Positions 33,089 through 51,073 of a stretch of DNA of 64,000 nucleotides are shown here, piece after piece. The stretch is from NCBI GenBank assembly GCA_964404275.1, contig CAYOJH010000002.1, positions 19,042-83,041 on the forward strand. The letters are read 5' to 3'. The notes under the pieces were generated by a model that saw nothing but the letters and a program-made list of their open reading frames with translations, was not told where the DNA came from and did not search any database. This DNA is from an uncultured Gammaproteobacteria bacterium (GTDB lineage: Bacteria > Patescibacteriota > Patescibacteriia > SG8-24 > DYFX01). The number at the start of each line of letters is the position of its first letter. The stretch's first letter is position 1. Position numbers and translations under genes: made by a program.

Positions 33089-33937
33089 ATGAAACCGCAG
33101 CGATTCACGATCGTCGGTGTCATGGGCCTCGGCATGGTCGGCGGCGCCATTTTTCGGCACTTCCAAAAGACGGGTTACGTCCCGGGCGAAACGCTCGTCG
33201 GCTATGATCCGGTCAAGGAAGGCCAGAACGATCTCGCGCCGATCCAGAAGGCGGATATCGTCTTCGTGGCCGTGCCGACGCCGTATCTGACGGGCGAAGA
33301 CGGCCGCACCGGCTTCGATTTGTCGCTTGTCCGTTCCGCCATCGAAACGCTCGAGGGCTCCAAAGTCATCGTCATCAAATCGACGGTCCTGCCCGGCGCG
33401 ACGGAAGAACTCCAGGCGGAATTCCCGCATCACAAAATCCTCTTCAATCCCGAATTCCTGACGGAAGTTTCAGCCGACCAGGACATGGCTTTTCCGGATC
33501 GTCAGCTGGTCGGTGCGACCGAGCAGTCGTTCAACGTCGCCGCCGACGTGCTCGCGATCCTGCCGCTCGCGCCGTTCGAGCGCGTCATGAAAGCGCGTGA
33601 AGCCGAGATGGTGAAGTACTACGGCAACACCTGGTTCTCGACCAAAGTCATCTTCGCCAACCAGATGTACGATCTCTGCCAAGCCATCGGCGTCGACTAC
33701 GACACGGTCAAGGAAGCCGCCGCAGCCGACAAGCGCATCGGCCGCACGCATCTCGAAATCTTCCACAAAGGCTATCGCGGTTACGGCGGCAAGTGCCTGC
33801 CGAAAGACACGCGCGCGCTGATCGAGCTGGGTGACAAGCTCGGCGTCGAAATGGCGCTCTTGAAACGCGTCGAAGAGCTGAACAACGCGCTGGTCGCGGC
33901 CCAAGCGGAAAAGAAAGCCGAAACGCAGCCCGCCTGA
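33089..33937 (+). CDS. Nucleotide-sugar dehydrogenase family protein (UDP-glucose 6-dehydrogenase-like), short form lacking the C-terminal domain
   Basis: N-terminal Rossmann IVGVMGLGMVGGAI and catalytic-Cys region GGKCLPKDT. Only 282 aa. Confidence 0.65.
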   Translation: MKPQRFTIVGVMGLGMVGGAIFRHFQKTGYVPGETLVGYDPVKEGQNDLAPIQKADIVFVAVPTPYLTGEDGRTGFDLSLVRSAIETLEGSKVIVIKSTVLPGATEELQAEFPHHKILFNPEFLTEVSADQDMAFPDRQLVGATEQSFNVAADVLAILPLAPFERVMKAREAEMVKYYGNTWFSTKVIFANQMYDLCQAIGVDYDTVKEAAAADKRIGRTHLEIFHKGYRGYGGKCLPKDTRALIELGDKLGVEMALLKRVEELNNALVAAQAEKKAETQPA

Positions 33938-35091: not shown

Positions 35092-35116
35092 AAGCTCCCC
35101 GCGCGGGGAGTTTTTT
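35092..35116. terminator. Bidirectional Rho-independent terminator
   Basis: CTCCCCGCGCGGGGAG palindrome with a T-run on both strands. Overlaps the stop of the minus-strand gene. Confidence 0.7.
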
Positions 35117-36285
35117 CAGAGATAGCCGAGCTCACGAAGAAGCGACTGCCGTTCCCAGATCGGACACGGCGCGTTCGTCCTGGCGGCGGTGACGGCCAGG
35201 CCGAAGCCGAGCTGCCGGGCCAAGACGCCGCGATTCTGGAGACAATCTTTCCATTGAAAAGGCCACCAGTCCCGATCGTCGCTCATCGCGCCCATCATCG
35301 CGCCGACCATCGAGGCGACGGTGTCGGTATCGCCGCCGGCGTTGATCGCTTCGAGCACGGCCGCCGTCGGCTCCTGATCTTCGCAATGCCGGTACCAGAT
35401 CGCGAGCGCGAGCGGCACGGTGTTGAGCGAGTCCGCGATGCCTTTGCTGCCGAAGGCCCAGAGCTCTTCCGGCTTGCCGGAGAGCGAGAGCGCGTGGTGC
35501 AGCGCGTAGGAGAAGCGGTCGCGGCCTTTGTGCAGCAGGTTCAGCTGCACGTCCGCCGTTTCGACGCGCGCCTTGAGCAGCGTGAACGCGCCCTCCGGTC
35601 CGAAGCCGCGGACCAGATCGTGGACGACGCTCGCGACCGCGTAGGCGGCGACCGCGCAGAGCGGATCGCCGTGCGTGATGCGGGAGAATTCGAGGATCTG
35701 CATCAACGCTTCGCCGGACGCGAAGACGTCGCTTCTGCCGCGCAGGGCCATGAAGGCCGCGAGCGGCGCGATCTTCATCGACGGGCCGTTGCCGCGGGCC
35801 TTCTCGCGCCGTTGCGCCGGATGCGCGGGATCGCGCGGCTGCGCGGCTTCCCAGAGCGTCCGGTCCGCCGGCTTCTTGAAGGCCGGCGGAGGATGTTTCG
35901 CGAACAGCTTTCGCCGCTCGCGGTACCACTTGTCGATCTCGTAGAGACCGCGCTTGGTGGTGCGACCCCAGCCGGAGACGTCGTTCCAGAGCGCCTTGAG
36001 ATGCAACAGCACTTGGAGCTCATGGACGTAGCCGTCACCCATGATCAGGCCGTCGGCCACGGCGTTCGCGAGCTGGCTGTCGTCCGACGTGGAGCCGGGC
36101 GGCAGGTCGCGCGTGTCGTCGATCTTGCGTTCGATCTTGAGATCGAATCGCGGCCGATCGACGCCGAAGCCGCCGGTCGCGTCCAAGATCTCCTGGCGCG
36201 TCATGCATTCGAACGGCACGCCGAGCGCGTCGCCGAGGTGGACGCCGAGCATCACATTGGCCAGTCGCTGTTTGCTATTGGACAT
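35116..36285 (-). CDS. ADP-ribosylglycohydrolase family protein (DraG/ARH-like)
   Basis: GDALGVPFE N-terminal motif and GGDTDTVASMVGAMMGA C-terminal motif. AAAAGGGG Shine-Dalgarno 5 nt upstream of the ATG at 36285. Confidence 0.75.
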   Translation of the reverse strand: MSNSKQRLANVMLGVHLGDALGVPFECMTRQEILDATGGFGVDRPRFDLKIERKIDDTRDLPPGSTSDDSQLANAVADGLIMGDGYVHELQVLLHLKALWNDVSGWGRTTKRGLYEIDKWYRERRKLFAKHPPPAFKKPADRTLWEAAQPRDPAHPAQRREKARGNGPSMKIAPLAAFMALRGRSDVFASGEALMQILEFSRITHGDPLCAVAAYAVASVVHDLVRGFGPEGAFTLLKARVETADVQLNLLHKGRDRFSYALHHALSLSGKPEELWAFGSKGIADSLNTVPLALAIWYRHCEDQEPTAAVLEAINAGGDTDTVASMVGAMMGAMSDDRDWWPFQWKDCLQNRGVLARQLGFGLAVTAARTNAPCPIWERQSLLRELGYL

Positions 36286-36384
36286 GCGGACCCCTTTTGA
36301 AAGAACGTGGGGGAGCGTAGCAGCGCGCGGGCGTTTCGTCCAGTCTCCCACCCGTGCTATCATAGTCCGGAAATTCCATCATTG

Positions 36385-37269: not shown

Positions 37270-39072
37270 ATGACCACGAATGAAATCCGCTCGAAATTCC
37301 TGGATTTTTTCAAAGAAAAGGGCCACGCGATCATCCCTTCGGCCTCTTTGATTCCCGAAAACGATCCGACGGTGCTGTTCACGACGGCGGGCATGCATCC
37401 GCTCGTGCCATACCTGCTCGGCGAACCGCATCCGGCCGGCCGGCGCTTGGCCGACGTGCAGAAGTGCGTCCGCACCGGCGACATCGACGAAGTCGGCGAC
37501 AACCGCCACCTCACGTTTTTTGAGATGCTCGGCAACTGGTCGCTCGGCGATTACTTCAAGCGCGAGGCGATCACCTGGTCGTTCGAATTCCTGACCTCGC
37601 CGCGCTGGTTGAATCTCGATCCAGGACGCATCTACGTCACCGTCTTCGAAGGCGATGCCGATGCGCCGCGCGACTTGGAATCCGTCGCGATCTGGCAGGA
37701 CGCGTACCAAACGCGCGGCATTGAAGCGCGCTTCAACGAGCGCATCTTCGCCTATCCGAAAGACAAGAACTGGTGGGGACCGGCCGGCATGACCGGTCCG
37801 TGCGGTCCCGACACGGAAATTTTTTGGGACACCGGCCGTCAGCACGATCCGCGCCACGGCGCCGAGTGCCATCCGAACTGCGACTGCGGACGCTTCATCG
37901 AGATCTGGAACAACGTCTTCATGGAGTACAACAAGTCGGCGGCGGGCGCCTTCGAGCCGCTCGCGCAGAAGAACGTTGACACCGGCATGGGTCTGGAACG
38001 CGTCGTGGCGGTGCTGCAAGGCAAGTCGACGGTCTTCGACACGGAAAATTTTCAGGAGATGCTGGCCGCCGCCGGCGCGATCTGCGGCAAGACGTACGGC
38101 AAAAATGAAGACGACGACCGCGCCATGCGTATCGTCGTCGATCACGTCCGCACGGCCGTCTTCATGATCGGCGATCCGCGCGGCATCACGCCGTCGAACG
38201 TCGATCAGGGCTACATCCTGCGCCGCTTGATCCGCCGCGCCGTTCGTTATGGACGCCAGCTCGGCATCGAAGGCTTCTTCACGTCCAAAATCGCCGAGAA
38301 GGTGATCGAACTTTTCCGCGACGCGTATCCCGAGCTTGAAAAGAACCGCGATCGCGTGATCGGCGAACTCGACGCCGAAGAGGACAAATTCATGCGCACG
38401 CTCCAGAACGGCCTGCGCGAAGTCGAGAAGGTCAAGAAAGACCTGGAAGCCTCGCCGACCATTCCGGGCGAGACGGCCTTCTATTTGTACGAATCGTTCG
38501 GCTTTCCGAAAGAATTGACCGAGGAAACCGTCGGAAAGAAGGTGGACGAAGCCGAATGGCAAAAAGCCATGAAGGCCCACCAGGACCTTTCGCGCCAAGG
38601 CGCCGAGAAGAAGTTCAAGGGCGGCTTGGCGGACCACTCCTGGGAGACGACGCGCCTTCACACCGCCACGCATCTTTTGCATAAAGCGCTCCGCAACGTC
38701 CTCGGCGCGCACGTCGAGCAGAAAGGCTCCAACATCACCGCCGAGCGTCTGCGTTTCGATTTCTCGCATCCGAACAAGATGACGCCGGAAGAACTCAAGA
38801 ACGTCGAAGACATGGTCAACGAGGCCATCGTCCGCGATCTCCCCGTCCACTTCGAAGAGATGACCGTCGGCGAAGCCAAGCGCGGGGGAGCGATCGGCCT
38901 GTTCGAAGACCGTTACGGCGACAAGGTCAAAGTCTACGTCGTCGGCGATTATTCCAAGGAAATCTGCGGCGGCCCGCACGTCCAGCACACGGCCCAGCTC
39001 GGACGCTTCAAAATCTTGAAGGAGGAAGCGTCGTCGGCCGGCGTGCGCCGCATTAAAGCGATCGTTGAATGA
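37270..39072 (+). CDS. alaS: Alanine--tRNA ligase, short form lacking the C-Ala/DHHA1 domain
   Basis: Class II catalytic core ([23 protein letters not shown]), tRNA-recognition domain, and editing domain (HTATHLL...CGGPHV). Ends at 600 aa. Confidence 0.92.
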
Positions 39073-40034
39073 AATCCTATCTCGTCACCGGCGCCGCGGG
39101 CTTCATCGGCTTCCATGTCGCGAAGCGCCTGCTCGAGCGCGGCGACGCCGTGATCGGGCTCGATAATTTGAACGATTACTACGACGTTTCCTTGAAGGAA
39201 GCGCGTTTGGCGCGCCTGGCGCATCCGCACTTCCGTTTTGAAAAACTCGATATCGCCGATCGTGAAGGCATGAAGCGTTTTTTTGAAAAAGCCTCTTTTG
39301 ACGTCGTGATCCACCTGGCCGCGCAGGCCGGCGTGCGCCATTCGCTGACGCATCCCGAGTCGTACATCGACAGCAACCTGGTCGGCTTCGGCAACATCCT
39401 CGAGGGCTGCCGCCACAAAAAGGTCGCGCACCTGGTCTACGCCTCGTCGAGTTCCGTTTACGGCGGCAACACCGAGATGCCCTTCTCGACCTCGCAGAAC
39501 GTCGATCATCCGCTCAGCCTGTACGCGGCCACCAAGAAAGCCAACGAGCTCATGGCGCACGTCTACAGCCACCTCTACGCGCTGCCGACGACCGGCCTGC
39601 GTTTCTTCACCGTCTACGGTCCGTGGGGGCGTCCCGACATGGCGATGTTCTCTTTCACCAAAGCGATCCTCGAAGGCAAGCCGATCGACGTCTTCAATCA
39701 CGGCAAGATGCAGCGCGATTTCACCTACATCGACGACATCGCCGAGGGCGTGATCCGCGCAGCCGACCATCTGCCGGCGGGGGAGCCGCCCTACAAAATC
39801 TACAACATCGGCAACAACGCGCCGGTCGAGCTCGGTCATTTCATCGCCACGATCGAGAAAGCGCTCGGACGGGAAGCCAAGAAGAATTTCCTGCCGATGC
39901 AGCCCGGCGACGTGCCGGCCACCTACGCCGACGTGGACGACCTGATGCGCGACGTCGGCTTCAAACCCGCCACGCCGATCGAAGAAGGCGTTGACAAATT
40001 CGTCGCGTGGTACAAAGAATACTATCGTCCATAG
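39069..40034 (+). CDS. NAD-dependent epimerase/dehydratase (UDP-glucuronate 4-epimerase-like)
   Basis: [10 protein letters not shown] Rossmann, [18 protein letters not shown] catalytic YxxxK. ATGA overlap with alaS. Confidence 0.85.
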
Positions 40035-42535: not shown

Positions 42536-43351
42536 ATGGAAGACATTCTTCTTCCGTCGAAGATCGAAATCACTCCGACCGGGCGCGACAACGAGTCGAT
42601 GCTCGTCATGGAGCCGTTCTTCCACGGCTACGGCCACACGGTCGGCAACGCCCTTCGCCGGGTCTTGCTCTCGTCCCTCCAGGGCGCCGCGGTCATCGCC
42701 GTGAAGATCAAAGGCGCGTCGCACGAGTTCCAGGCCATCCCGAACGTCAAGGAAGACGTCCTCGAGATCATCCTGAACCTCAAGCAGCTCCGCCTGAAGG
42801 TGTTCTCCGATGAGCCGGTCAAGCTGACGCTTCACGCCAAAGGCGAGAAGAAAGTCACGGGCAAAGACATCCTGCCGAACTCGGACGTGGAAGTCGCCAA
42901 CCCGAACATGCACATCGCGACGCTCACGGACAAGTCCGGCGAGCTCGAAATGGAGATCACCGTGGCCAAGGGCCGCGGCTACGTCCCGACCGAGGAGCGC
43001 GGCAAGGAGCGCGGCGAACTCGGCACGATCGCCATCGACGCCCTCTACAGCCCGATCCGCTCGGTCGGCTACAAGGTGGACGACGTCCGCGTCGGCCAGA
43101 TCACCAACTTCGACAAGCTGACGCTCACGATCGAGACCGACGGCACGGTGGACGCCGACGAGGCCATCCGCTCGTCCGCTAAAATCCTGATCGACCACTT
43201 CGGTCTTCTGACCGGCCTCGCGGCCGGCGAGGCTCCGGCCAAGGCCGAAGCCGCCGAAGAAGCCTCCGGAGAAGCCGGAGAGGAATCGTCCGAACCCTCC
43301 GCCGACGGAGAAGAGAAGCCCAAGAAAAAGAAGGCTTCCAAAAAGAAATAA
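42536..43351 (+). CDS. rpoA: DNA-directed RNA polymerase alpha subunit, N-terminal domain only plus a charged tail
   Basis: The alpha-NTD is complete (EPFFHGYGHTVGNALRRVLLSS...). After about residue 228 the sequence is AAGEAPAKAEAAEE...KPKKKKASKKK, not a helical alpha-CTD. Confidence 0.9.
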   Translation: MEDILLPSKIEITPTGRDNESMLVMEPFFHGYGHTVGNALRRVLLSSLQGAAVIAVKIKGASHEFQAIPNVKEDVLEIILNLKQLRLKVFSDEPVKLTLHAKGEKKVTGKDILPNSDVEVANPNMHIATLTDKSGELEMEITVAKGRGYVPTEERGKERGELGTIAIDALYSPIRSVGYKVDDVRVGQITNFDKLTLTIETDGTVDADEAIRSSAKILIDHFGLLTGLAAGEAPAKAEAAEEASGEAGEESSEPSADGEEKPKKKKASKKK

Positions 43352-43353
43352 GT

Positions 43354-43704
43354 ATGCGCCATCGCGTTAAAGGAGCCATCTTGAGCCGAACGAAAGGGCC
43401 GCGCACCGCGCTGCTCCGCAATTTGGCGACCTCCGTCGTCTTGTACGAGAAGGTCAGGACCACCAAGGCCAAGGCGAAATTCGTCCGCCCGCTGGTCGAG
43501 AAGGCGATCACGATCGGCCGCGTCGGAACGCTCGCGTCCCGCCGCCAGCTGCATACGATGTTCACCCTCGAAAACGCGATCAAGAAGATCGTCGAGGAAC
43601 TCGGCCCCAAGTACAAGGGCCGCTCCGGCGGTTACACGCGCATCACGCCGCTCAAGCGCCGCGAAGGCGACGCCGCCGAGATGGTCATGATCGAACTGGT
43701 TTAA
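43354..43704 (+). CDS. rplQ: 50S ribosomal protein L17
   Basis: MRHRVKGAILSRTKGPRTALLRNLATSVV is the L17 N-terminus. Confidence 0.95.
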   Translation: MRHRVKGAILSRTKGPRTALLRNLATSVVLYEKVRTTKAKAKFVRPLVEKAITIGRVGTLASRRQLHTMFTLENAIKKIVEELGPKYKGRSGGYTRITPLKRREGDAAEMVMIELV

Positions 43705-43705
43705 T

Positions 43706-44071
43706 ATGCCGAGCACTTCCATCACCCGCAAAGCCGTCGAACTCGACGCCGCCGGACAGTCCGTCGGCCGCTTGGCGACGCAGATCGCGCGCATTTTGAT
43801 CGGCAAGCACAAGGCGACCTACACGCCGAACGTCGACGCCGGCGACACCGTCCGCGTCAAGAACGCGCACAAGCTCGTCCTGACCGGCAACAAGCAGGAA
43901 ACGAAACTCTACTACCACTACTCGCAGTATCCGGGCGGCATGAAAACCCGCGAAGCCAAGACCTTGATGGTCAAGGACCCGGGCAAGATCCTCCGCTACG
44001 CCGTCGATCGCATGCTCCCGAAGAACACGCTGCGCGCTCGTCGCATCAAGCGCCTGACGATCATCAAATAA
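43706..44071 (+). CDS. rplM: 50S ribosomal protein L13
   Basis: L13 family sequence (GRLATQIARILIGKHKATYTPNVDAGD). Confidence 0.92.
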   Translation: MPSTSITRKAVELDAAGQSVGRLATQIARILIGKHKATYTPNVDAGDTVRVKNAHKLVLTGNKQETKLYYHYSQYPGGMKTREAKTLMVKDPGKILRYAVDRMLPKNTLRARRIKRLTIIK

Positions 44072-44076
44072 GCGCT

Positions 44077-44571
44077 ATGACGACGAAGAAAGAACCCGCC
44101 AAAAAGACCGCCGCCAAGCACGCTCCGGCCAAAGCCGAAGCGAAAGCGGCTTCGAAGAAGCAAGTGAAGCACGAAGCCACCGGCACGTACGTCTACGCGC
44201 TCGGCCGCCGCAAGCGCGGCGTCGCCCAGGTCCGCGTCTACCTCGCCGGCAAAGGCAGCGTCACCGTCAACTCGAAGCCGATGAAGGACTACTTCCCGGT
44301 CGACGAGCTCCAGGACGCCGTGCTGTCGCCGCTCAAGGCCGTCGGCATGGACGCGACCGCCGACGTGGTCGCTTCCGCCCACGGCGGCGGCATCCGCGGT
44401 CAAGCTGACGCCGTCAAGCTCGGCATCGCCCGCGCCCTCCTGGTCCACAACCCCGATTTCCGCGCCACCCTGAAACCCCTCGGCGTCCTGACCCGCGACC
44501 CCCGCGAAAAGGAACGCAAGAAGTACGGTCTCAAGAAAGCCCGCAAGTCCCCGCAGTGGGCGAAACGTTAA
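44077..44571 (+). CDS. rpsI: 30S ribosomal protein S9 with a K/A-rich N-terminal extension
   Basis: GGGIRGQADAVKLGIARAL and C-terminal DPREKERKKYGLKKARKSPQWAKR. Confidence 0.93.
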   Translation: MTTKKEPAKKTAAKHAPAKAEAKAASKKQVKHEATGTYVYALGRRKRGVAQVRVYLAGKGSVTVNSKPMKDYFPVDELQDAVLSPLKAVGMDATADVVASAHGGGIRGQADAVKLGIARALLVHNPDFRATLKPLGVLTRDPREKERKKYGLKKARKSPQWAKR

Positions 44572-44607: not shown

Positions 44608-44640
44608 AGAAAAAACCTTCACGCGCGGGGTCGTGCACCA

Positions 44641-44994
44641 TTACGGTGCACGGCGGGGCGGGAAGGTGGCGGAGGCGTACTTGAGGAGGGGAGCGAGGAG
44701 CGTGTCGAACTTGAAGACGATGTCCGGTTCGCTCGGCAGGAGCCAGATGCGGCTGACGGAGCGCTGGAGTTGCTTGCCGCCGACCAGGAACTGGATGTCC
44801 GCGTCGAGTCCGCGCTCGATGACCGAGCGGCTGCGGCGCATGACCGAGCCGTAGATCGTTTGGTTGGTCTTTCGCTGGAACTCGGCGTAGACATCAACGA
44901 GCTTCTGGATATCGGCGCGGTTCCAGCCCTTGCGCTCGAGGTGTTGGAGAACGCCGATCAGGATGTGCTCGCTGTTCGCGGCGAAGACCTTCAC
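44641..44994 (-). CDS. Small hypothetical protein, paralog 1 of a tandem pair (117 aa; possibly a winged-helix regulator)
   Basis: GTG start overlapping the TGA of paralog 2 (GTGA). Aligns residue-for-residue with paralog 2 (RKGW, LVDVY, IYGSV, C-terminal FPPRRAP). Confidence 0.5.
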   Translation of the reverse strand: MKVFAANSEHILIGVLQHLERKGWNRADIQKLVDVYAEFQRKTNQTIYGSVMRRSRSVIERGLDADIQFLVGGKQLQRSVSRIWLLPSEPDIVFKFDTLLAPLLKYASATFPPRRAP

Positions 44995-45350
44995 GGCGCG
45001 CTCCGCGGCGGAAAGATGACATCCGCATGTTTGATGAGCGTGCGGTAATGCGGGTGGAGCGTGAGCGAGGCCGCGGCCGGAAGGCCGAGCGTCGTGAGCT
45101 GCACGCGGCTTACCGTCCGTTGGACGAGCTGGCGATTCTCGAGATCCTTGAGATCCTGTACGAGATCGTCCTTGAGCGCGCCTCGCGTCGGATTCCGCAC
45201 GGAGCCGTAGATCACGGCGCCGGTGGCGCGCTGGTACGCATCGTACACGTCGACAAGCTTGTCGACGTCGAGAAGATCCCAGCCCTTTTTGCGCAGATCG
45301 AAGATCAGGGCGAACAGGACTTGATCGTGCGTCGTGGCAATGATCGGCAT
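44991..45350 (-). CDS. Small hypothetical protein, paralog 2 of a tandem pair (119 aa)
   Basis: ATG at 45350 with a GGAGG Shine-Dalgarno 5 nt upstream. Ends FPPRSAP. The remainder of the longer ORF is an upstream extension antisense to nothing recognizable. Confidence 0.5.
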   Translation of the reverse strand: MPIIATTHDQVLFALIFDLRKKGWDLLDVDKLVDVYDAYQRATGAVIYGSVRNPTRGALKDDLVQDLKDLENRQLVQRTVSRVQLTTLGLPAAASLTLHPHYRTLIKHADVIFPPRSAP

Positions 45351-45447
45351 CCGAACCTCCGAATGGGTCCGGACTGAGCATAGCCATGACCGAGGCCGAC
45401 CGTCAAGGTTGATATTTTGCCTTGGAAATGGGAAAATAAAGGCGGAT

Positions 45448-46878
45448 ATGTCCGTCGCGCGGAACACCGCAACCCTGCTCGTCGCCTCGATTTTGCAGAA
45501 AATCCTGGCTTTCGCGTACTTCGCCGTGATCGCGCGGCTGGCCGGCGTGCACGATACCGGCACCTATTTCTTCGCGCTGTCGTGGACGCTGATGTTTTCG
45601 ATCGTGACGGATTTGGGATTGACCTCGGTCCTGATCCGCGAATCGGCTCGCGATCACGAGCGCGCGGAACACGTCTTGAATCAAGTGCTTTCGCTCAAGG
45701 CACCCCTCATCGCGCTCATGGCGATCGCCTCGATCGGCGCGGCCTACGTGACCGGCACGCGAGGAGTAGCGCTTCTGATGATCACGCTCGGCACGATCGT
45801 GCTGGCGCTCGATGCGACCTCCGTCACGTTTTACGGCCTGCTCCGCGGACACCACGTGCTCGTGTACGAAGGTATCGGCCTCGTGATCGGCCAATCGCTG
45901 ACGCTCGTGATCGGCGGCTTCCTGCTCGCGACGCACGCGCCGCTGTTCATGCTGATGTTCGCGATCGTCGCCGGCAGTTTTTGGAACGCCTGTGCGTCGT
46001 ATTACGTCGTCCGAACCAAGCTCAAGATCCATCCGCGCTTCGCTTGGAACCGCGCGCTCGCCAAGATGATCGTCAAGACCGCGATCCCGTTCGCGCTGGC
46101 GGGAGCGTTCGTGAAAATCTATACCAACATCGACGTCGTGCTGCTCACCAAGTTCGCGGGCGTGACGGCGGCCGGTCTTTACAGCGTGCCGTACAAGCTG
46201 ACCTTCGCGTTCCAATTCATCCCGCTCACCTTCACCGCGGCGCTCTATCCGGCCATGAGCCGGGCGTACGTCGAGGACAAGACCAAACTGGCCGACCTGT
46301 TCCACAAGGCGCTCTGGGCGCTCTCCATGATCGTCGCGCCGATTATCGCGGGGCTGGTCGCGCTCGGGCCGGAGATCGTCCGCGCGGTTTACGGCGCGGC
46401 CTATGCGCCGTCGATCCTGCCGACGCAGATCCTGATTTTCACGTTGATTTTCATCTTCCTCGATATCCCGATCGGCTCGCTCTTGAACGGTTCCGATCGA
46501 CAGGTCACGCAGACGACCTTGATGGGCGTCGCGATGCTCGTGTCGGTCATCTTGAACGTCGCGCTGATTCCCGTGATCGGCGTCATGGGCGCGGTCGCGG
46601 CCTCGCTCGTCAGCCATGCCGTGCTCTGTTTCGGCGGCTTGCACGCGATCGACAAGTTCCTCGCCTGGCCGCGTCTCCGATTCTTCGGCTTGGCGCTCAG
46701 GATCGCGCTCGCGGCCGGCGGCATGGGCGCGGTCGTCTGGCTCGCCAAGCCGCATCTCCCGCTGATCGCTTCGGTGCTCCTGGGCGGCCTGGCTTACGCC
46801 TTTTTTTCCTTCCTCTTCCGTACCGTCTCCGCGGACGATCTCCGCGATTTGACCGGACGGATTTTGAAACGCGCCTGA
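45448..46878 (+). CDS. Polysaccharide biosynthesis flippase (MOP/MATE-like, Wzx family)
   Basis: About 14 TM helices. AAGGCGG Shine-Dalgarno 4-5 nt upstream of the ATG at 45448. Confidence 0.7.
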   Translation: MSVARNTATLLVASILQKILAFAYFAVIARLAGVHDTGTYFFALSWTLMFSIVTDLGLTSVLIRESARDHERAEHVLNQVLSLKAPLIALMAIASIGAAYVTGTRGVALLMITLGTIVLALDATSVTFYGLLRGHHVLVYEGIGLVIGQSLTLVIGGFLLATHAPLFMLMFAIVAGSFWNACASYYVVRTKLKIHPRFAWNRALAKMIVKTAIPFALAGAFVKIYTNIDVVLLTKFAGVTAAGLYSVPYKLTFAFQFIPLTFTAALYPAMSRAYVEDKTKLADLFHKALWALSMIVAPIIAGLVALGPEIVRAVYGAAYAPSILPTQILIFTLIFIFLDIPIGSLLNGSDRQVTQTTLMGVAMLVSVILNVALIPVIGVMGAVAASLVSHAVLCFGGLHAIDKFLAWPRLRFFGLALRIALAAGGMGAVVWLAKPHLPLIASVLLGGLAYAFFSFLFRTVSADDLRDLTGRILKRA

Positions 46879-46888
46879 ATTCCATCGC

Positions 46889-47986
46889 ATGAAATCTTTT
46901 TTCAACCGCTATCGCGCGCACCAGAAAGGCTTCAGCTCGCGTTTCCGTTTCATGAAGGCCGCGCATGAGATGGGTGGAAAAAAAATCCTGCTCGTCACGT
47001 ACGAATATCCGCCCGACCTGGGCGGCGTGGCCAGTTACCTCGGAGGACTCTTCGGCGCGCTGCCGGAGGTGCGCGTGCTGAAGCTTCCGCAGCCAAAATT
47101 CCCGTTCGCCTGGCTCCTGCAATTGCCGAAGATGTGGAAAGCCGCCCGCGCGGCGGATCTTGTGGCCGTTTCGCATCTCCTGCCGCTTGGCACGGCGGCC
47201 ATGCTCTTAGGAAAACCGTACGTCGTCGTCGTCCACGGCCTCGATCTGCGCCTGGCGCGCCGAAAGAAAGGTCTGGCGTCGCGCGTCTTGAAGAAGGCCA
47301 GGCTCATCGTGGCCAACAGTCGCTCGACCGCTTCGGAATTGCCGTTCTTCGGCCTGCCGGCCGCGTCGGCGCTCGTCCTGACGCCCGGGTTCGATCCTTC
47401 GTTCGAAAAATTCGCCGAAAAGGCGGGGCACTCCGCCTTCCAGGCCTCGCTCCTGTCCGTCGGCCGGTTCGTGCCGCGCAAAGGCTTCGACCGTTTGATC
47501 GGCCTCTTGCCCAAGCTGCGCGAACGATGTGGCGACGTGATGCTGATTTTGGCCGGCTCCGGTCCGGAAGAGGGGAAGCTCCGCCAGGAGGCGAAGAAGC
47601 TCGGCATGAGCGCCCACGTCCAGTTCGTGATCGCGCCGGATCGCGTCACCCTGGCCGCCCACTACTGGGCCTGCGAAGTTTTCGCGCTGGCGGCTCGCGC
47701 CTCCGAAGATGACGTCGAAGGCTTCGGCATCGTCTGCCTGGAAGCCGCGCTGTTCGGCAAGCCGGTCGTGGCCACGCGCGCCGGCGGCCTGGCCGAAGCG
47801 GTGGCGGACAATGAAACGGGCCTTCTGGCCGATCCCGGTTCGGACCAAGAGCTGCTGGAAAAACTCGCTTCGCTTTTCGCGGACCATGAGCGGGCGCGCC
47901 GTTTGGGCGCAGCCGGACGCGCGCGCGTCCTGCGCGACTTCCGCTGGGAAGACCGCGCGAAACTGTTGCGGGAACGCCTGGCATGA
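46889..47986 (+). CDS. Glycosyltransferase family 4
   Basis: EGFGIVCLEAALFGKPVVATRAGGLAEAV...GLL is the GT4 E-x7-E region. The start may be a downstream ATG. Confidence 0.8.
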   Translation: MKSFFNRYRAHQKGFSSRFRFMKAAHEMGGKKILLVTYEYPPDLGGVASYLGGLFGALPEVRVLKLPQPKFPFAWLLQLPKMWKAARAADLVAVSHLLPLGTAAMLLGKPYVVVVHGLDLRLARRKKGLASRVLKKARLIVANSRSTASELPFFGLPAASALVLTPGFDPSFEKFAEKAGHSAFQASLLSVGRFVPRKGFDRLIGLLPKLRERCGDVMLILAGSGPEEGKLRQEAKKLGMSAHVQFVIAPDRVTLAAHYWACEVFALAARASEDDVEGFGIVCLEAALFGKPVVATRAGGLAEAVADNETGLLADPGSDQELLEKLASLFADHERARRLGAAGRARVLRDFRWEDRAKLLRERLA

Positions 47987-48690
47987 AAAAAATTTCCGTC
48001 ATCATCCCGTGCTACAACCACGCCTCCACGATCGGCCGCTGCCTGGAGAGCGTTTTCGCGCAGACGTACGAAAACGTCGAAGTGATCGTGGTTGACGACG
48101 GCTCGCGGGACGCGCTGGATGCCGCCCTCGCGCTGTTTCGCGATCGCGTCCGCGTGATCCGCCAGCACAACCAAGGCGGACCCGCCGCCCGCAACCGCGG
48201 CTTCCGCGAATCGACGGGCGACTTCGTGATGTTCTGCGACGCCGACGCGCGTTTGCGGAAAGACGCCCTTGAAAAATTGTCGGCGGCGCTCGAGGCGCAT
48301 CCCGAAGCGGCCTACGCCTATGCTTCTTTCAGATTCGGCTGGAAAAAATTCCCGCTCGGTCCGTTCGATCCCGAACGCCTCAAGAAGCATAATTACATCC
48401 ACACGGGGTCCTTGATCCGCCGCGAAGCCTTTCCGGGTTTCGACGAGACGCTCAAGCGCTTCCAGGACTGGGACCTTTGGCTTACGATGATGGAGCAAGG
48501 GAAGACCGGCATTTGGGTTCCCGAAATGCTGAGCAAGGTCCACGTCTCCTCGAAGCGAGGCGGCATCTCGAATTGGCTGCCGAAATTCGTCTACCGTCTG
48601 CCCTGGCGCCTGCTCGGCTGGAAACCGAAGCGCCTCTCCGACTACGAAGAGGCCGCGACCGTGATCCGAAAAAAACATCGCCTGGCATGA
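47983..48690 (+). CDS. Glycosyltransferase family 2
   Basis: ISVIIPCYNHAST...VIVVDDGSRD and DxD motif FCDADA. ATGA overlap with the previous gene. Confidence 0.8.
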   Translation: MKKISVIIPCYNHASTIGRCLESVFAQTYENVEVIVVDDGSRDALDAALALFRDRVRVIRQHNQGGPAARNRGFRESTGDFVMFCDADARLRKDALEKLSAALEAHPEAAYAYASFRFGWKKFPLGPFDPERLKKHNYIHTGSLIRREAFPGFDETLKRFQDWDLWLTMMEQGKTGIWVPEMLSKVHVSSKRGGISNWLPKFVYRLPWRLLGWKPKRLSDYEEAATVIRKKHRLA

Positions 48691-49574
48691 GCCGTCCCGC
48701 CGATCTCTCGATCGTGACCGTCAACTGGAAAGTCGCCGAACTGGTCGGCGAGCTTTTGGGCTCGATCGAAGCCAACAAAGAAGATTTGGCGCTCGAGATT
48801 TTCGTCGTCGACAACGATTCCCGTGACGACCTCGAAAACGTCGTCACGCGTTTCAAGAATCGCTCCGGCATTCCGATCACGCTGATCAAGAACGCGCGGA
48901 ATCTCGGCTTCGCGGCCGCCAATAACATCGCGCTGCGCCGCGCCTCCGGCCGCTACGTCGCCCTGCTCAATCCCGACGCACGCGCGACGCACGGATCCTT
49001 GAAAGCCATGCTTTCCTGGATGGACGCGCATGCGGACGTCGGCATCGCCGGCCCGAAACTCTTGAACGTCGACGGTTCGCTTCAGGCGTCAGTCCGCCGC
49101 TTTCCGACGCTTTGGGATCAGACGCTGATTCTTTTGAAAGTCCAGCACCTCTGGCCCGACGCGCCCGCTTTCAAGCGATACCTGGCGAAGGATTTTGACT
49201 ACGCGAAAGCGCAGGACGTCGATCAGGTCATGGGCGCCGCCTTGTTCGTGCGCCAGGACGTGTTCAAGAAGATCGGCCTGCTCGACGAGGCGTTTTTCAT
49301 CTGGTTCGAGGAGGTGGATTTCTGCAAACGCGCCAAGGACGTCGGCTGGCGCATCGTGTATACACCCATAGCCTCGTTCATCCATCACGGCGGCGCCAGC
49401 TTCGCCAAGGCGATGACCTTCAAGAAACAGCGCTATTTCACGAACAGCATGCGGATCTATTTCGCCAAGCATCGCGGCGCTTGGACGAGCGTCGTGCTGG
49501 CGCTGCCGATGCTCTTCGGCCTCGGTTCCGCCGCGCTCTTTTCCCTATGGACTTCCGCACCCCGCAAATCGTGA
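48687..49574 (+). CDS. Glycosyltransferase family 2 (rhamnosyltransferase-like)
   Basis: LSIVTVNWK...IFVVDNDSRDD and LLNPDA. ATGA overlap with the previous gene. Confidence 0.75.
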   Translation: MSRPADLSIVTVNWKVAELVGELLGSIEANKEDLALEIFVVDNDSRDDLENVVTRFKNRSGIPITLIKNARNLGFAAANNIALRRASGRYVALLNPDARATHGSLKAMLSWMDAHADVGIAGPKLLNVDGSLQASVRRFPTLWDQTLILLKVQHLWPDAPAFKRYLAKDFDYAKAQDVDQVMGAALFVRQDVFKKIGLLDEAFFIWFEEVDFCKRAKDVGWRIVYTPIASFIHHGGASFAKAMTFKKQRYFTNSMRIYFAKHRGAWTSVVLALPMLFGLGSAALFSLWTSAPRKS

Positions 49575-51073
49575 AAAAACACCTGCCGCTTTTCGTGTTC
49601 CTGCTGTCGGGAACGCTCGAGATGGTGTCGTATTGGGGCTGGCACGCGCCCGAGGTGCGAATTTCGGCGCTGGCGTTCCTCGGCATCGGAGCGCTCGTGC
49701 TGGCGTGCCTTGACTTGCGCTGGCTCTTCGCCCTGGTCCTGATCGAAGCGGTCATCGGCAGCCATGGCCGCCTGTTCTTCGCCGACGTCGGCGGCTTCTC
49801 GCTCTCGCTCAGGATGACGCTCTTCGCCGTCCTGGTCGCGGGCTGGACGCTGCACGCCGCGCGGGGCTGCGCCCGCATCCTGCACTTTCGCCACGTGCAC
49901 GTGGCGGGACCGCTCCTGCTGCTCGTGGCCGCCGTGACCTTGGCGTCCGTGCGCGGCTGGGGGATGGGCGCGCCGCTTTCCGAAATTTTCAACGACGCGA
50001 ACGGGTACGCCTTTCTGCTCCTGATCCCGATCGGACTCGACCTCTTCGCCGACCGTCCGGCCTTCGCCTGGCTCTTGCGGGCGCTCTCCGGCGCCGTCGC
50101 CTGGCTCTGCGCGAAGAGCTTGCTGCTCTTGTATGTCTTTTCGCACTCGTTCAAAGGCGGCTTCTTGCCGGATCTCTACGCTTGGCAGCGCAAATTCGGC
50201 CTGACGGAGATCACGCATCTTTCCGGCGGGGCGGTCCGCGTCTTCGCCGCTTCGGACGTCCTGTTGATTCCTGCGCTCGCGCTCGGCGCGCTCTTCGCCT
50301 GGGAAACGAAGCGCCGCTCCGTTTTCCTGTGGACTTCGCTCGTCGGGGCGACCTTGCTGCTCAGCTTGTCGCGCAGCTTCTGGCTCGGCCTGATGGTCGC
50401 GACGACCTTCATGCTGCCGGTCCTGCTGCGCTTCGAGCTCGCGCCGCTCCGCGCGCTCGGCCGGCTGTTCTTGAAAGGCTGCTACGCGATCCTGCTCGGC
50501 GCGGCCCTGCTCGCGGCGCTCGTGCTTTTCCCGCTGCCCAAGCCGGCCGCGAACGCCTCCGCCTGGTCGGTCTACGGCGGACATTTCGTCGACGCGAGCG
50601 ACGCGGCCGTTTCGAGCCGCTGGAACATGCTTCAGCCTTTGCATGACGGCATCGCCGCCGCGCCGATCCTGGGCTCCGGCTTCGGGGCGCAGATCACGTA
50701 TCACTCCGACGATCCGCGCATGCAGGATCTGTATCCGGGCGGCGCCGTCACGACCGGCGCGATCGAATGGCAGTACCTCGAAATCTGGTTCAAGATGGGC
50801 CTCTTCGGCCTCCTGGCCGTGTTTTGGCTGTGGTGGCGGATCGGCCTGCTCTTCTGGAAAACATTCGAGACGGCCCGGGGAGAGGACCGTCTCGTGGCCG
50901 CGGGCTTGATGCTGTCGTTCCTGGCCTTCGTCGTCGCCAATTTGTTCACGCCGTACGTCAATCATCCGCTCGGCTGGTGTTTCCTGACGCTCGTGATCGT
51001 CGGCTTCCATGCCGCCGAAGAACACGCGCGGCCCGAACATCACGAGGTTCCTAGGCCAATTCGGCTCCGTTGA
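49547..51073 (+). CDS. O-antigen ligase / polymerase-like membrane protein (Wzy_C family)
   Basis: Polytopic, with SLSRSFWLGLMV (SR..WL motif of the O-antigen ligase family) and a large loop. Confidence 0.6.
   Translation: MDFRTPQIVKKHLPLFVFLLSGTLEMVSYWGWHAPEVRISALAFLGIGALVLACLDLRWLFALVLIEAVIGSHGRLFFADVGGFSLSLRMTLFAVLVAGWTLHAARGCARILHFRHVHVAGPLLLLVAAVTLASVRGWGMGAPLSEIFNDANGYAFLLLIPIGLDLFADRPAFAWLLRALSGAVAWLCAKSLLLLYVFSHSFKGGFLPDLYAWQRKFGLTEITHLSGGAVRVFAASDVLLIPALALGALFAWETKRRSVFLWTSLVGATLLLSLSRSFWLGLMVATTFMLPVLLRFELAPLRALGRLFLKGCYAILLGAALLAALVLFPLPKPAANASAWSVYGGHFVDASDAAVSSRWNMLQPLHDGIAAAPILGSGFGAQITYHSDDPRMQDLYPGGAVTTGAIEWQYLEIWFKMGLFGLLAVFWLWWRIGLLFWKTFETARGEDRLVAAGLMLSFLAFVVANLFTPYVNHPLGWCFLTLVIVGFHAAEEHARPEHHEVPRPIRLR

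Follow-up and report, generated by a model that had tools for sequence, protein, structure and literature searches.

We analysed two adjacent small genes, A and B, on the minus strand of a 64,000-nucleotide (nt) stretch of contig CAYOJH010000002.1 (assembly GCA_964404275.1; hereafter the window, whose numbering is used throughout), where they lie back to back with a glycan operon that begins with a Wzx-type flippase gene (Table 1). A and B are real, translationally coupled paralogous genes. A first-pass annotation, made from the letters of this DNA, had described two tandem paralogues of 119 and 117 amino acids (aa), with the GTG start of the second overlapping the TGA stop of the first and a GGAGG Shine-Dalgarno site ahead of the first, and all these elements are present exactly as described; pairwise alignment of the two proteins (BLASTP, 36% identity over the full length, E = 2e-24) confirms the duplication. 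The assigned starts agree with the public gene calls of 119 and 117 aa, and the first position of the family hidden Markov model (HMM) falls on the Met of A, backing its ATG start; further support comes from L001, where the orthologous pair overlaps (ATGA) at the same point. The GC content at codon positions 1/2/3 is 0.69/0.38/0.79 in A and 0.64/0.39/0.88 in B, a distinct coding signature within surrounding DNA of 62% GC, which the pair matches in overall GC content. The genes had been thought to be embedded in out-of-frame open reading frames (ORFs), but the longer ORFs of the mechanical list (44641..45387 and 44991..45563; 248 and 190 aa, respectively) are in-frame upstream extensions of B and A, and both genes looked unclean because the list held only these extensions. 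This case illustrates how such small genes escape naive ORF lists in high-GC DNA. A search of the 64-kb window with the family profile detected no third copy.

Table 1. Features of the A-B locus and of the divergent glycan operon (positions in the window)
Feature	Coordinates	Strand	Details
Gene A (A-type paralogue)	44991..45350	minus	119 aa; ATG at 45350, TGA at 44991-44993
Gene B (B-type paralogue)	44641..44994	minus	117 aa; GTG at 44992-44994, TAA at 44641-44643
GTGA start/stop overlap	44991..44994	minus	4 nt; couples A to B
Shine-Dalgarno site of A	45356..45360	minus	GGAGG; purine-rich counterpart (GGAGG/GGAAG/AAGGAG) in aligned loci
Shine-Dalgarno-like site of B	45001..45004	minus	GGAG; within the last A codons, 6 nt ahead of GTG
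Sigma-70-like promoter of A-B operon	45377..45406	minus	TTGACG (45406-45401), 18 nt, TATGCT (45382-45377)
Promoter-like site of flippase operon	45409..45437	plus	TTGATA, 17 nt, GAAAAT
Palindrome from two back-to-back -35 boxes	45403..45412		TCAACCTTGA; sole conserved candidate operator
Intrinsic terminator of A-B operon	44610..44667	minus	hairpin over the last B codons and stop codon, then U6
Wzx-type flippase gene (Polysacc_synt)	45448..46878	plus	first gene of the divergent glycan operon; Pfam PF01943, E = 8e-34
GT4 gene	46889-47986	plus	Pfam
GT2 gene	47983-48690	plus	Pfam
Second GT2 gene	about 48687-49574	plus	Pfam
Wzy_C/O-antigen-ligase-like gene	49481-51073	plus	Pfam

Synteny was compared across eight loci: the window, L001, L007, L009, L010, L011, L014 and L017. 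In the window, the flippase gene is followed by the divergent A-B pair and the convergent rpsI, and L001 (GCA_964347735.1) has the same layout, with an ATGA overlap between A and B and an additional PQ-loop gene. L009 and L010 carry a third paralogue, C, in the divergent order C, A, B, with C located about 55 nt (L009) or about 50 nt (L010) upstream of the overlapping A-B pair, whereas L017 combines a 71-aa A-type gene, coupled to B by ATGA, with B and rpsI. In L011-L013 (GCA_964553975.1), B stands alone next to the flippase gene and is separated from rpsI by about 5 kb of other genes, and in L007 and L014 a PNPOx gene precedes B. Thus, a B-type gene is found in every related locus, always as the last gene; A and C, where present, lie upstream of it as optional additions. 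The A-B pair recurs, in keeping with the conservation anticipated in the first-pass annotation, in five loci, and the 4-nt overlap (ATGA or GTGA) is present in all five loci that hold both genes (window, L001, L009, L010 and L017). The Shine-Dalgarno-like site ahead of B likewise has counterparts, GGAGG with 6-nt spacing in L001 and AGGA with 7 nt in L017. The array diverges from the same Wzx flippase gene in all eight loci of this subfamily, so that the suggested link to the divergent polysaccharide locus is conserved; it persists even where identity falls to 66% in ribosomal protein L13 and to 58-59% in the flippase, and in L011 despite the 5 kb inserted between B and rpsI. In a neighbour-joining (NJ) tree, the B-types and the C-types each form a coherent clade and the A-types a looser group, which places the duplications before the divergence of these genomes. 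The 71-aa A-type gene of L017 (6320-6535) has lost helix 3 and the wing (see below) through an in-frame internal deletion; H1-H2, the FPxR tail and the C-terminal helix are kept, and the gene is still coupled to B by ATGA.

With a sigma-70-like promoter of its own, Shine-Dalgarno sites ahead of both genes and an intrinsic terminator, A-B constitutes a self-contained two-gene operon. The terminator hairpin (-26.8 kcal/mol, z = -4.4), whose stability none of 200 shuffles matched, is directed towards that of the convergent rpsI and has a simpler form, CCTTC...GAAGG+T6, in L001. A is separated from the divergent flippase ATG (45448) by a spacer of 97 nt (45351-45447), in which two promoter-like sites were found against 0.1 expected. 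Alignment of this spacer from the eight loci revealed conserved TTGAC and TAnnnT boxes and two A/T-rich blocks whose distance from the flippase start is constant; the TTGAC and TAnnnT boxes of the A-B promoter are kept in L001, L010, L011, L017 and L009. The -10-like GAAAAT of the promoter-like site for the flippase ends (45437) just 10 nt ahead of the flippase ATG, with equal spacing readable in L001 and L011, and the flippase mRNA may therefore be nearly leaderless. An invertible or phase-variable promoter was considered and dropped, as no flanking inverted repeats of note were found, and Rfam and tRNA scans of the window found nothing.

Several further sequence features were recorded at the two genes. 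Compared with L001 (7190-7215), the window (44626-44653) has an insertion of ~28 nt at the end of B, which adds the hairpin GTGCACC-GTAAT-GGTGCAC and turns the C-terminus of B from FPPRA* into FPPRRAP*. A 12-nt string, CGTGAAGGT(T/C)TT, occurs both at the junction of the A stop and the B start (44984-44995) and just past B (44612-44623), supplying the 3' arm and the T-run of the terminator there; the repeat may be a scar of the tandem duplication. Within gene A, ACGTCGACAAGCTTGTCGACGT (45247-45268) is a perfect 22-bp palindrome with zero spacer that codes for the family motif DVDKLVDV. No other such palindrome in the window is as long (among 30 shuffles, none had 11-nt arms and arms of 10 nt occurred at a mean of 0.07 per shuffle), and at the centre of the 22 bp lies the Leu codon CTT, the third base being A/T although the third-position GC content of gene A is 0.79. 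As a candidate operator it was rejected, because it is unique in the window and neither gene B nor the relatives have kept it (5-8 of 12 positions self-complementary), and it may be a simple outcome of the reverse-complementary D/V and K/L codons.

The family was delineated by an exhaustive HMMER search of 1.84 billion cluster representatives with a profile of A, B and one orthologue (E ≤ 0.001), which matched 14 proteins, one of them, P0016 (565 aa, repetitive), being discarded as spurious. The members are 112-128 aa long, except for one of 153 aa and the 62-aa fragment P0014. Apart from the query, word-index homologue searches returned only one orthologue and a few family members, the orthologue P0003 is 63-64% identical to B, and genome, metagenome and viral contig collections yielded no new loci beyond L001. 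Judged by sequence, the family is real but extremely rare. A from the window is its best profile match and carries all family motifs (GW, KLVDVY, IYGSV, QRTVSR and FPPR). Three members, P0010, P0011 and P0013, form a second subfamily that lacks the FPPR tail and an adjoining flippase gene: P0010 (L008 789-1151) precedes rpiB and rpe, P0011 overlaps by 4 nt an upstream 108-aa gene with a weak Xre-like or excisionase-like helix-turn-helix (HTH) (L015 285-1069), and P0013 (L018 627-1013) comes from contigs without informative neighbours.

Scans of A, B and the 14 members against Pfam, NCBIfam, PADLOC and PHROG gave nothing above noise. In particular, the Pfam search proposed in the first-pass annotation gave no match at E ≤ 10 to PadR (PF03551), MarR (PF01047/PF12802) or DUF4364 for any of the 14 members. 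HTH_DeoR and CggR_N were each matched by a single member at noise level (E = 0.16), and the match of A to DrmE_N (E = 0.013, one of the 14 members, below threshold) and a match to 'mpl' were rejected as chance. Sequence profile searches of the PDB detected no significant match and no MarR protein, only noise such as annexin and parafibromin; the family profile aligned weakly with the winged helix-turn-helix (wHTH) protein SSO2273 (2x4h) over H3 and the wing (E = 0.41).

An AlphaFold2 (AF2) model built with the 14-member alignment reached a predicted local distance difference test score (pLDDT) of 93.4 and a predicted template modelling score (pTM) of 0.85, compared with a pLDDT of 62 in a run with three sequences. 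The model comprises a short beta strand (residues 3-4), H1 (8-21), a beta strand (27-28), H2 (29-43), a loop (44-55), H3 (56-72), a beta-hairpin (76-78/82-85), H4 (89-94), H5 (100-112) and the FPPR tail, and its order H1, beta1, H2, H3, beta2, beta3 (wing) corresponds to canonical winged-helix topology around a three-helix core, with two additional C-terminal helices. The wing is very short, with a 3-residue tip. In a Foldseek search, the PDB list consisted nearly entirely of winged-helix DNA-binding regulators (SlyA, MepR, MexR and RovA, as well as HcpR and E2F-DP), with the PaaX-like 3l09 aligned at prob 0.99, TM 0.48 and a root-mean-square deviation (rmsd) of 3.2 Å over 94 columns and PaaX 8a39 at TM 0.49; a search of BFVD gave generic winged-helix (WH) domains only. 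The predicted winged-helix fold is thus reasonably supported, and of the first-pass suggestion of a PadR-like winged helix, the winged-helix part stands and the PadR part does not. The proposal that IYGSV belongs to the recognition helix was not borne out, as the model puts this motif (residues 47-51) in the conserved H2-H3 loop and residues 56-72 in the helix at the recognition position. The B proteins are basic, with net charges of +7 and +8 and a pI of about 10 (+7 and pI 10.1 for B of the window); the wing residue R78 is nearly invariant throughout the family, and both R78 and R82 are invariant among B-types. By predicted structure, A and B are winged-helix-fold proteins of about 115-120 aa from a family that is restricted to one lineage and had not been described.

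The two proteins change far faster than their conserved neighbours (window, L001, L011 and L017). Between the window and L001, identity is 92% for L13, 78% for the flippase, 63% for B and 34% for A, and the nonsynonymous divergence (dN) is 0.05, 0.16, 0.26 and 0.65, respectively; between L001 and L011, which lacks A, dN is 0.022 for L13, 0.097 for the flippase and 0.67 for B. The A-type protein of L001 is highly divergent and has lost the IYGSV motif. The NG86 omega of A is 0.53, with saturated synonymous divergence (dS). Since dS is near saturation and the B clade is split in two in the NJ tree, hidden paralogy may inflate these rates. Diversifying selection on A and B was therefore dropped as a conclusion despite the very high dN relative to the neighbours; the fast change could reflect hidden paralogy or relaxed or diversifying selection, which saturated dS makes indistinguishable.

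Taken together, the fold, the basic B, the wing arginines, the divergent back-to-back promoters and the association with the flippase gene in eight loci suggest that, most likely, the shared promoter region is regulated by DNA binding of A and B, B being the core and A its partner, a reading to which we give an even chance. The basic B protein would bind DNA and act on the 97-nt shared promoter region, thereby controlling the glycan operon, its own operon or both. A, along with C in the three-copy relatives, would be an accessory paralogue, co-translated with B in a fixed ratio, that joins B in a hetero-oligomer and modulates it. DNA binding, its target and heteromer formation are what we infer here: the heteromer is proposed because of the conserved translational coupling and the L017 A-type protein, which, without H3 and the wing, fits a partner role that needs no DNA-binding surface of its own. 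Small wHTH regulators usually dimerise through their N- and C-terminal helices, the only ones that this protein has kept. A bolder version appears unlikely as a whole, namely, an obligate hetero-oligomeric winged-helix regulator (A-B or C-A-B) of surface-glycan expression in which only B contacts DNA and fast-evolving accessory paralogues tune or switch its activity, an E2F-DP-like bacterial counterpart in a lineage with an apparently reduced genome and an RNA polymerase alpha subunit without a C-terminal domain (CTD).

A number of observations weigh against a regulator. No profile library scanned contains a sequence-family match for the A/B family, and Foldseek found no match at E ≤ 0.001 in the PDB or BFVD (E ≥ 0.04, TM ≤ 0.49). 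The link between H2 and H3 is a 12-residue loop (44-55) rather than a tight turn, which makes the HTH non-canonical. In A, moreover, helix 3 has an acidic character (ALKDDLVQDLKDLEN), and a pI of 4.4 was obtained for its orthologue in L001. The search of the spacer at 45351-45447 for a palindrome yielded one candidate, whose general form, TCAA-N2/3-TTGA, is present in four loci (window, L001, L010 and L011). However, it is not kept in L017, L009, L007 and L014, where the spacing differs, it can be simply explained as two -35 boxes, and the alignment of the eight spacers contains no operator conserved in all loci. A PNPOx gene intervenes between the flippase gene and B in L007 and L014, and the second subfamily sits in unrelated contexts. 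Finally, the eight loci come from one fairly narrow clade, so that their synteny could be inherited rather than functional and argues only weakly for regulation.

The fold could also serve purposes other than DNA binding. Proteins with the winged-helix fold act as protein-protein adaptors in MukE, ScpB, JetB and the WH modules of ESCRT-II, and one possibility along this line is that A and B are cytoplasmic accessory subunits of the glycan assembly machinery, with tandem paralogues replacing a multi-WH-domain protein. MukE (7v8p, 7nyw_F) and JetB (9qxt_E) occur among the Foldseek matches (prob 0.72-0.85, TM 0.42-0.47), the H2-H3 loop with IYGSV is long and conserved, helix 3 of A is acidic, arrays of one to three WH units resemble split multi-WH proteins, and the strict translational coupling suggests a fixed-ratio complex. 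We nevertheless consider an adaptor improbable, given that the annotated neighbours include no SMC or kleisin gene, that the genes diverge from the glycan operon instead of being part of it, an arrangement typical of regulators and not of pathway subunits, that the B proteins are strongly basic, and that the closest geometric fits are to DNA-binding wHTH domains, for instance PaaX. Alternatively, only B might be functional, in which case A would be a dispensable duplicate in the process of being lost and the coupling a relic of the duplication event. The absence of A-types from L011, L007 and L014, the internal deletion in L017 and the divergence of A in L001 (34% identity to A of the window, dN 0.65 versus 0.16 for the flippase, IYGSV lost) fit such decay, which we still regard as rather doubtful: A of the window is the best profile match with all family motifs, its coding statistics are intact and its Shine-Dalgarno site strong, A-types occur in tandem arrays at five substantially diverged loci with the 4-nt coupling always kept, and omega, at 0.53, is below 1, although dS is saturated.

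It is very unlikely that the pair is a selfish or defence two-gene module, such as a toxin-antitoxin-like system or the cargo of a mobile element, unrelated to the glycan operon. The genes are indeed small, overlapping, fast-evolving and patchy in copy number, the distant member P0011 overlaps a preceding small HTH gene by 4 nt, and A has its weak match to DrmE_N (E = 0.013). However, the partners are homologous to each other, unlike a toxin and its antitoxin, there are no PADLOC or PHROG matches and no relatives in viral contigs, GC content is in line with that of the surroundings, the chromosomal position between the flippase gene and the ribosomal-protein cluster is fixed in all relatives, and the DrmE_N match is below threshold and confined to one of the 14 members. 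As for a single longer gene split by a frameshift, the case that the first-pass annotation had named as contrary to its proposal, or ORFs that are not real genes, the longer overlapping ORFs of 248 and 190 aa in the mechanical list are what could suggest them. Both are almost certainly wrong, because each gene is a complete end-to-end copy of the same domain, the members keep to the size of a single domain (112-128 aa, bar the protein of 153 aa and fragment P0014) with no fused protein of ~240 aa among the 1.84 billion representatives, the two-gene layout recurs in independent assemblies, and the codon-position GC signature is strong.

Returning to the surroundings of A-B, the flippase/GT4/GT2/GT2/Wzy locus that had been reported head to head with the pair was confirmed by Pfam, and its gene order is shared with L001 and L017; beyond the Wzy_C-type gene, fmt lies on the opposite strand. 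On the other side of A-B are rpsI (convergent), rplM, rplQ, rpoA, rpsD and rpsK. Upstream of this ribosomal cluster, we observed sugar-related genes for a UDP-glucose/GDP-mannose dehydrogenase-like ORF and an NAD-dependent epimerase/dehydratase, and also an ADP-ribosylglycohydrolase (33089-33937, 35116-36363 and 39069-40034); these genes may feed the glycan pathway. RpoA (42536-43351) is only 271 aa long, with matches to the N-terminal domains PF01193 and PF01000 and none to the alpha-CTD, the alanyl-tRNA synthetase AlaRS (alaS, 37270-39072) is only 600 aa long, and rplM-rpsI come directly after rplQ (rplQ-rplM-rpsI, 43354-44571), which together suggest a reduced or unusual lineage. The public label 'uncultured Gammaproteobacteria' of the related metagenome-assembled genome (L001/L006) looks doubtful, since ribosomal protein S9 matched Thermus, along with a group of 130-aa uS9 chains that includes 3j9w, at about 116-118 bits and 5v93 at about 111 bits, and a third group of uS9 chains scored 91 bits; we take these groups of PDB chains to be Firmicutes, Mycobacterium and E. 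coli, the search output giving no organism names.

If A and B are indeed a regulator, they would represent a new sequence family among winged-helix regulators and, for an uncultured lineage, a candidate switch of a surface-glycan operon. Given its extreme rarity and its restriction to one clade, the family would have an impact that is local rather than general. Furthermore, the series of one, two and three coupled paralogues, with one partner lacking the presumed DNA-binding half, offers a compact system for the evolution from homodimer to heteromer.

Compared with known systems, the family comes closest to regulators of the MarR/SlyA and PaaX/GntR groups, which dominate its Foldseek matches and with which it shares the predicted topology of a beta-hairpin wing followed by C-terminal helices, the H3 and wing pattern 'L..L...g.v.R....r..LT..G' seen in the weak 2x4h alignment, and a gene that diverges from its probable target operon. 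Unlike these groups, the A/B family has no profile match to any such family (with Foldseek values no better than E = 0.04 and TM = 0.49), a conserved 12-residue IYGSV loop in place of the HTH turn, a very short wing, and arrays of one to three coupled paralogues instead of one homodimer-forming gene. With MarR itself, the likeness is local to the winged helix and does not extend to a whole-chain fold match (TM 0.25-0.38, rmsd 9-12 Å). The PadR family, subfamily 2 in particular, is similar in small size (about 110-120 aa) and in having a winged-helix core followed by a C-terminal helix, but PF03551 was not matched at E ≤ 10 by any of the 14 members and the top 50 Foldseek matches include no PadR structure. 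Type II toxin-antitoxin and defence modules differ in that A and B are homologous, with no PADLOC or PHROG match. The KITE proteins among the tandem-WH adaptors (MukE, ScpB and JetB) differ in their setting, as no SMC or kleisin neighbour is present in the window, L001, L011 or L017. With E2F-DP and these adaptors, the family would share paralogous WH units presumed to cooperate, and E2F-DP (1cf7_B), MukE and JetB are among its fold matches; the likeness to E2F-DP, MukE, ScpB and JetB is at the fold level only and below threshold, and, in contrast to E2F-DP, the A-B heteromer is inferred from translational coupling only. Thus, A and B appear to represent a new, very rare sequence family whose structural and functional kind is already well known.

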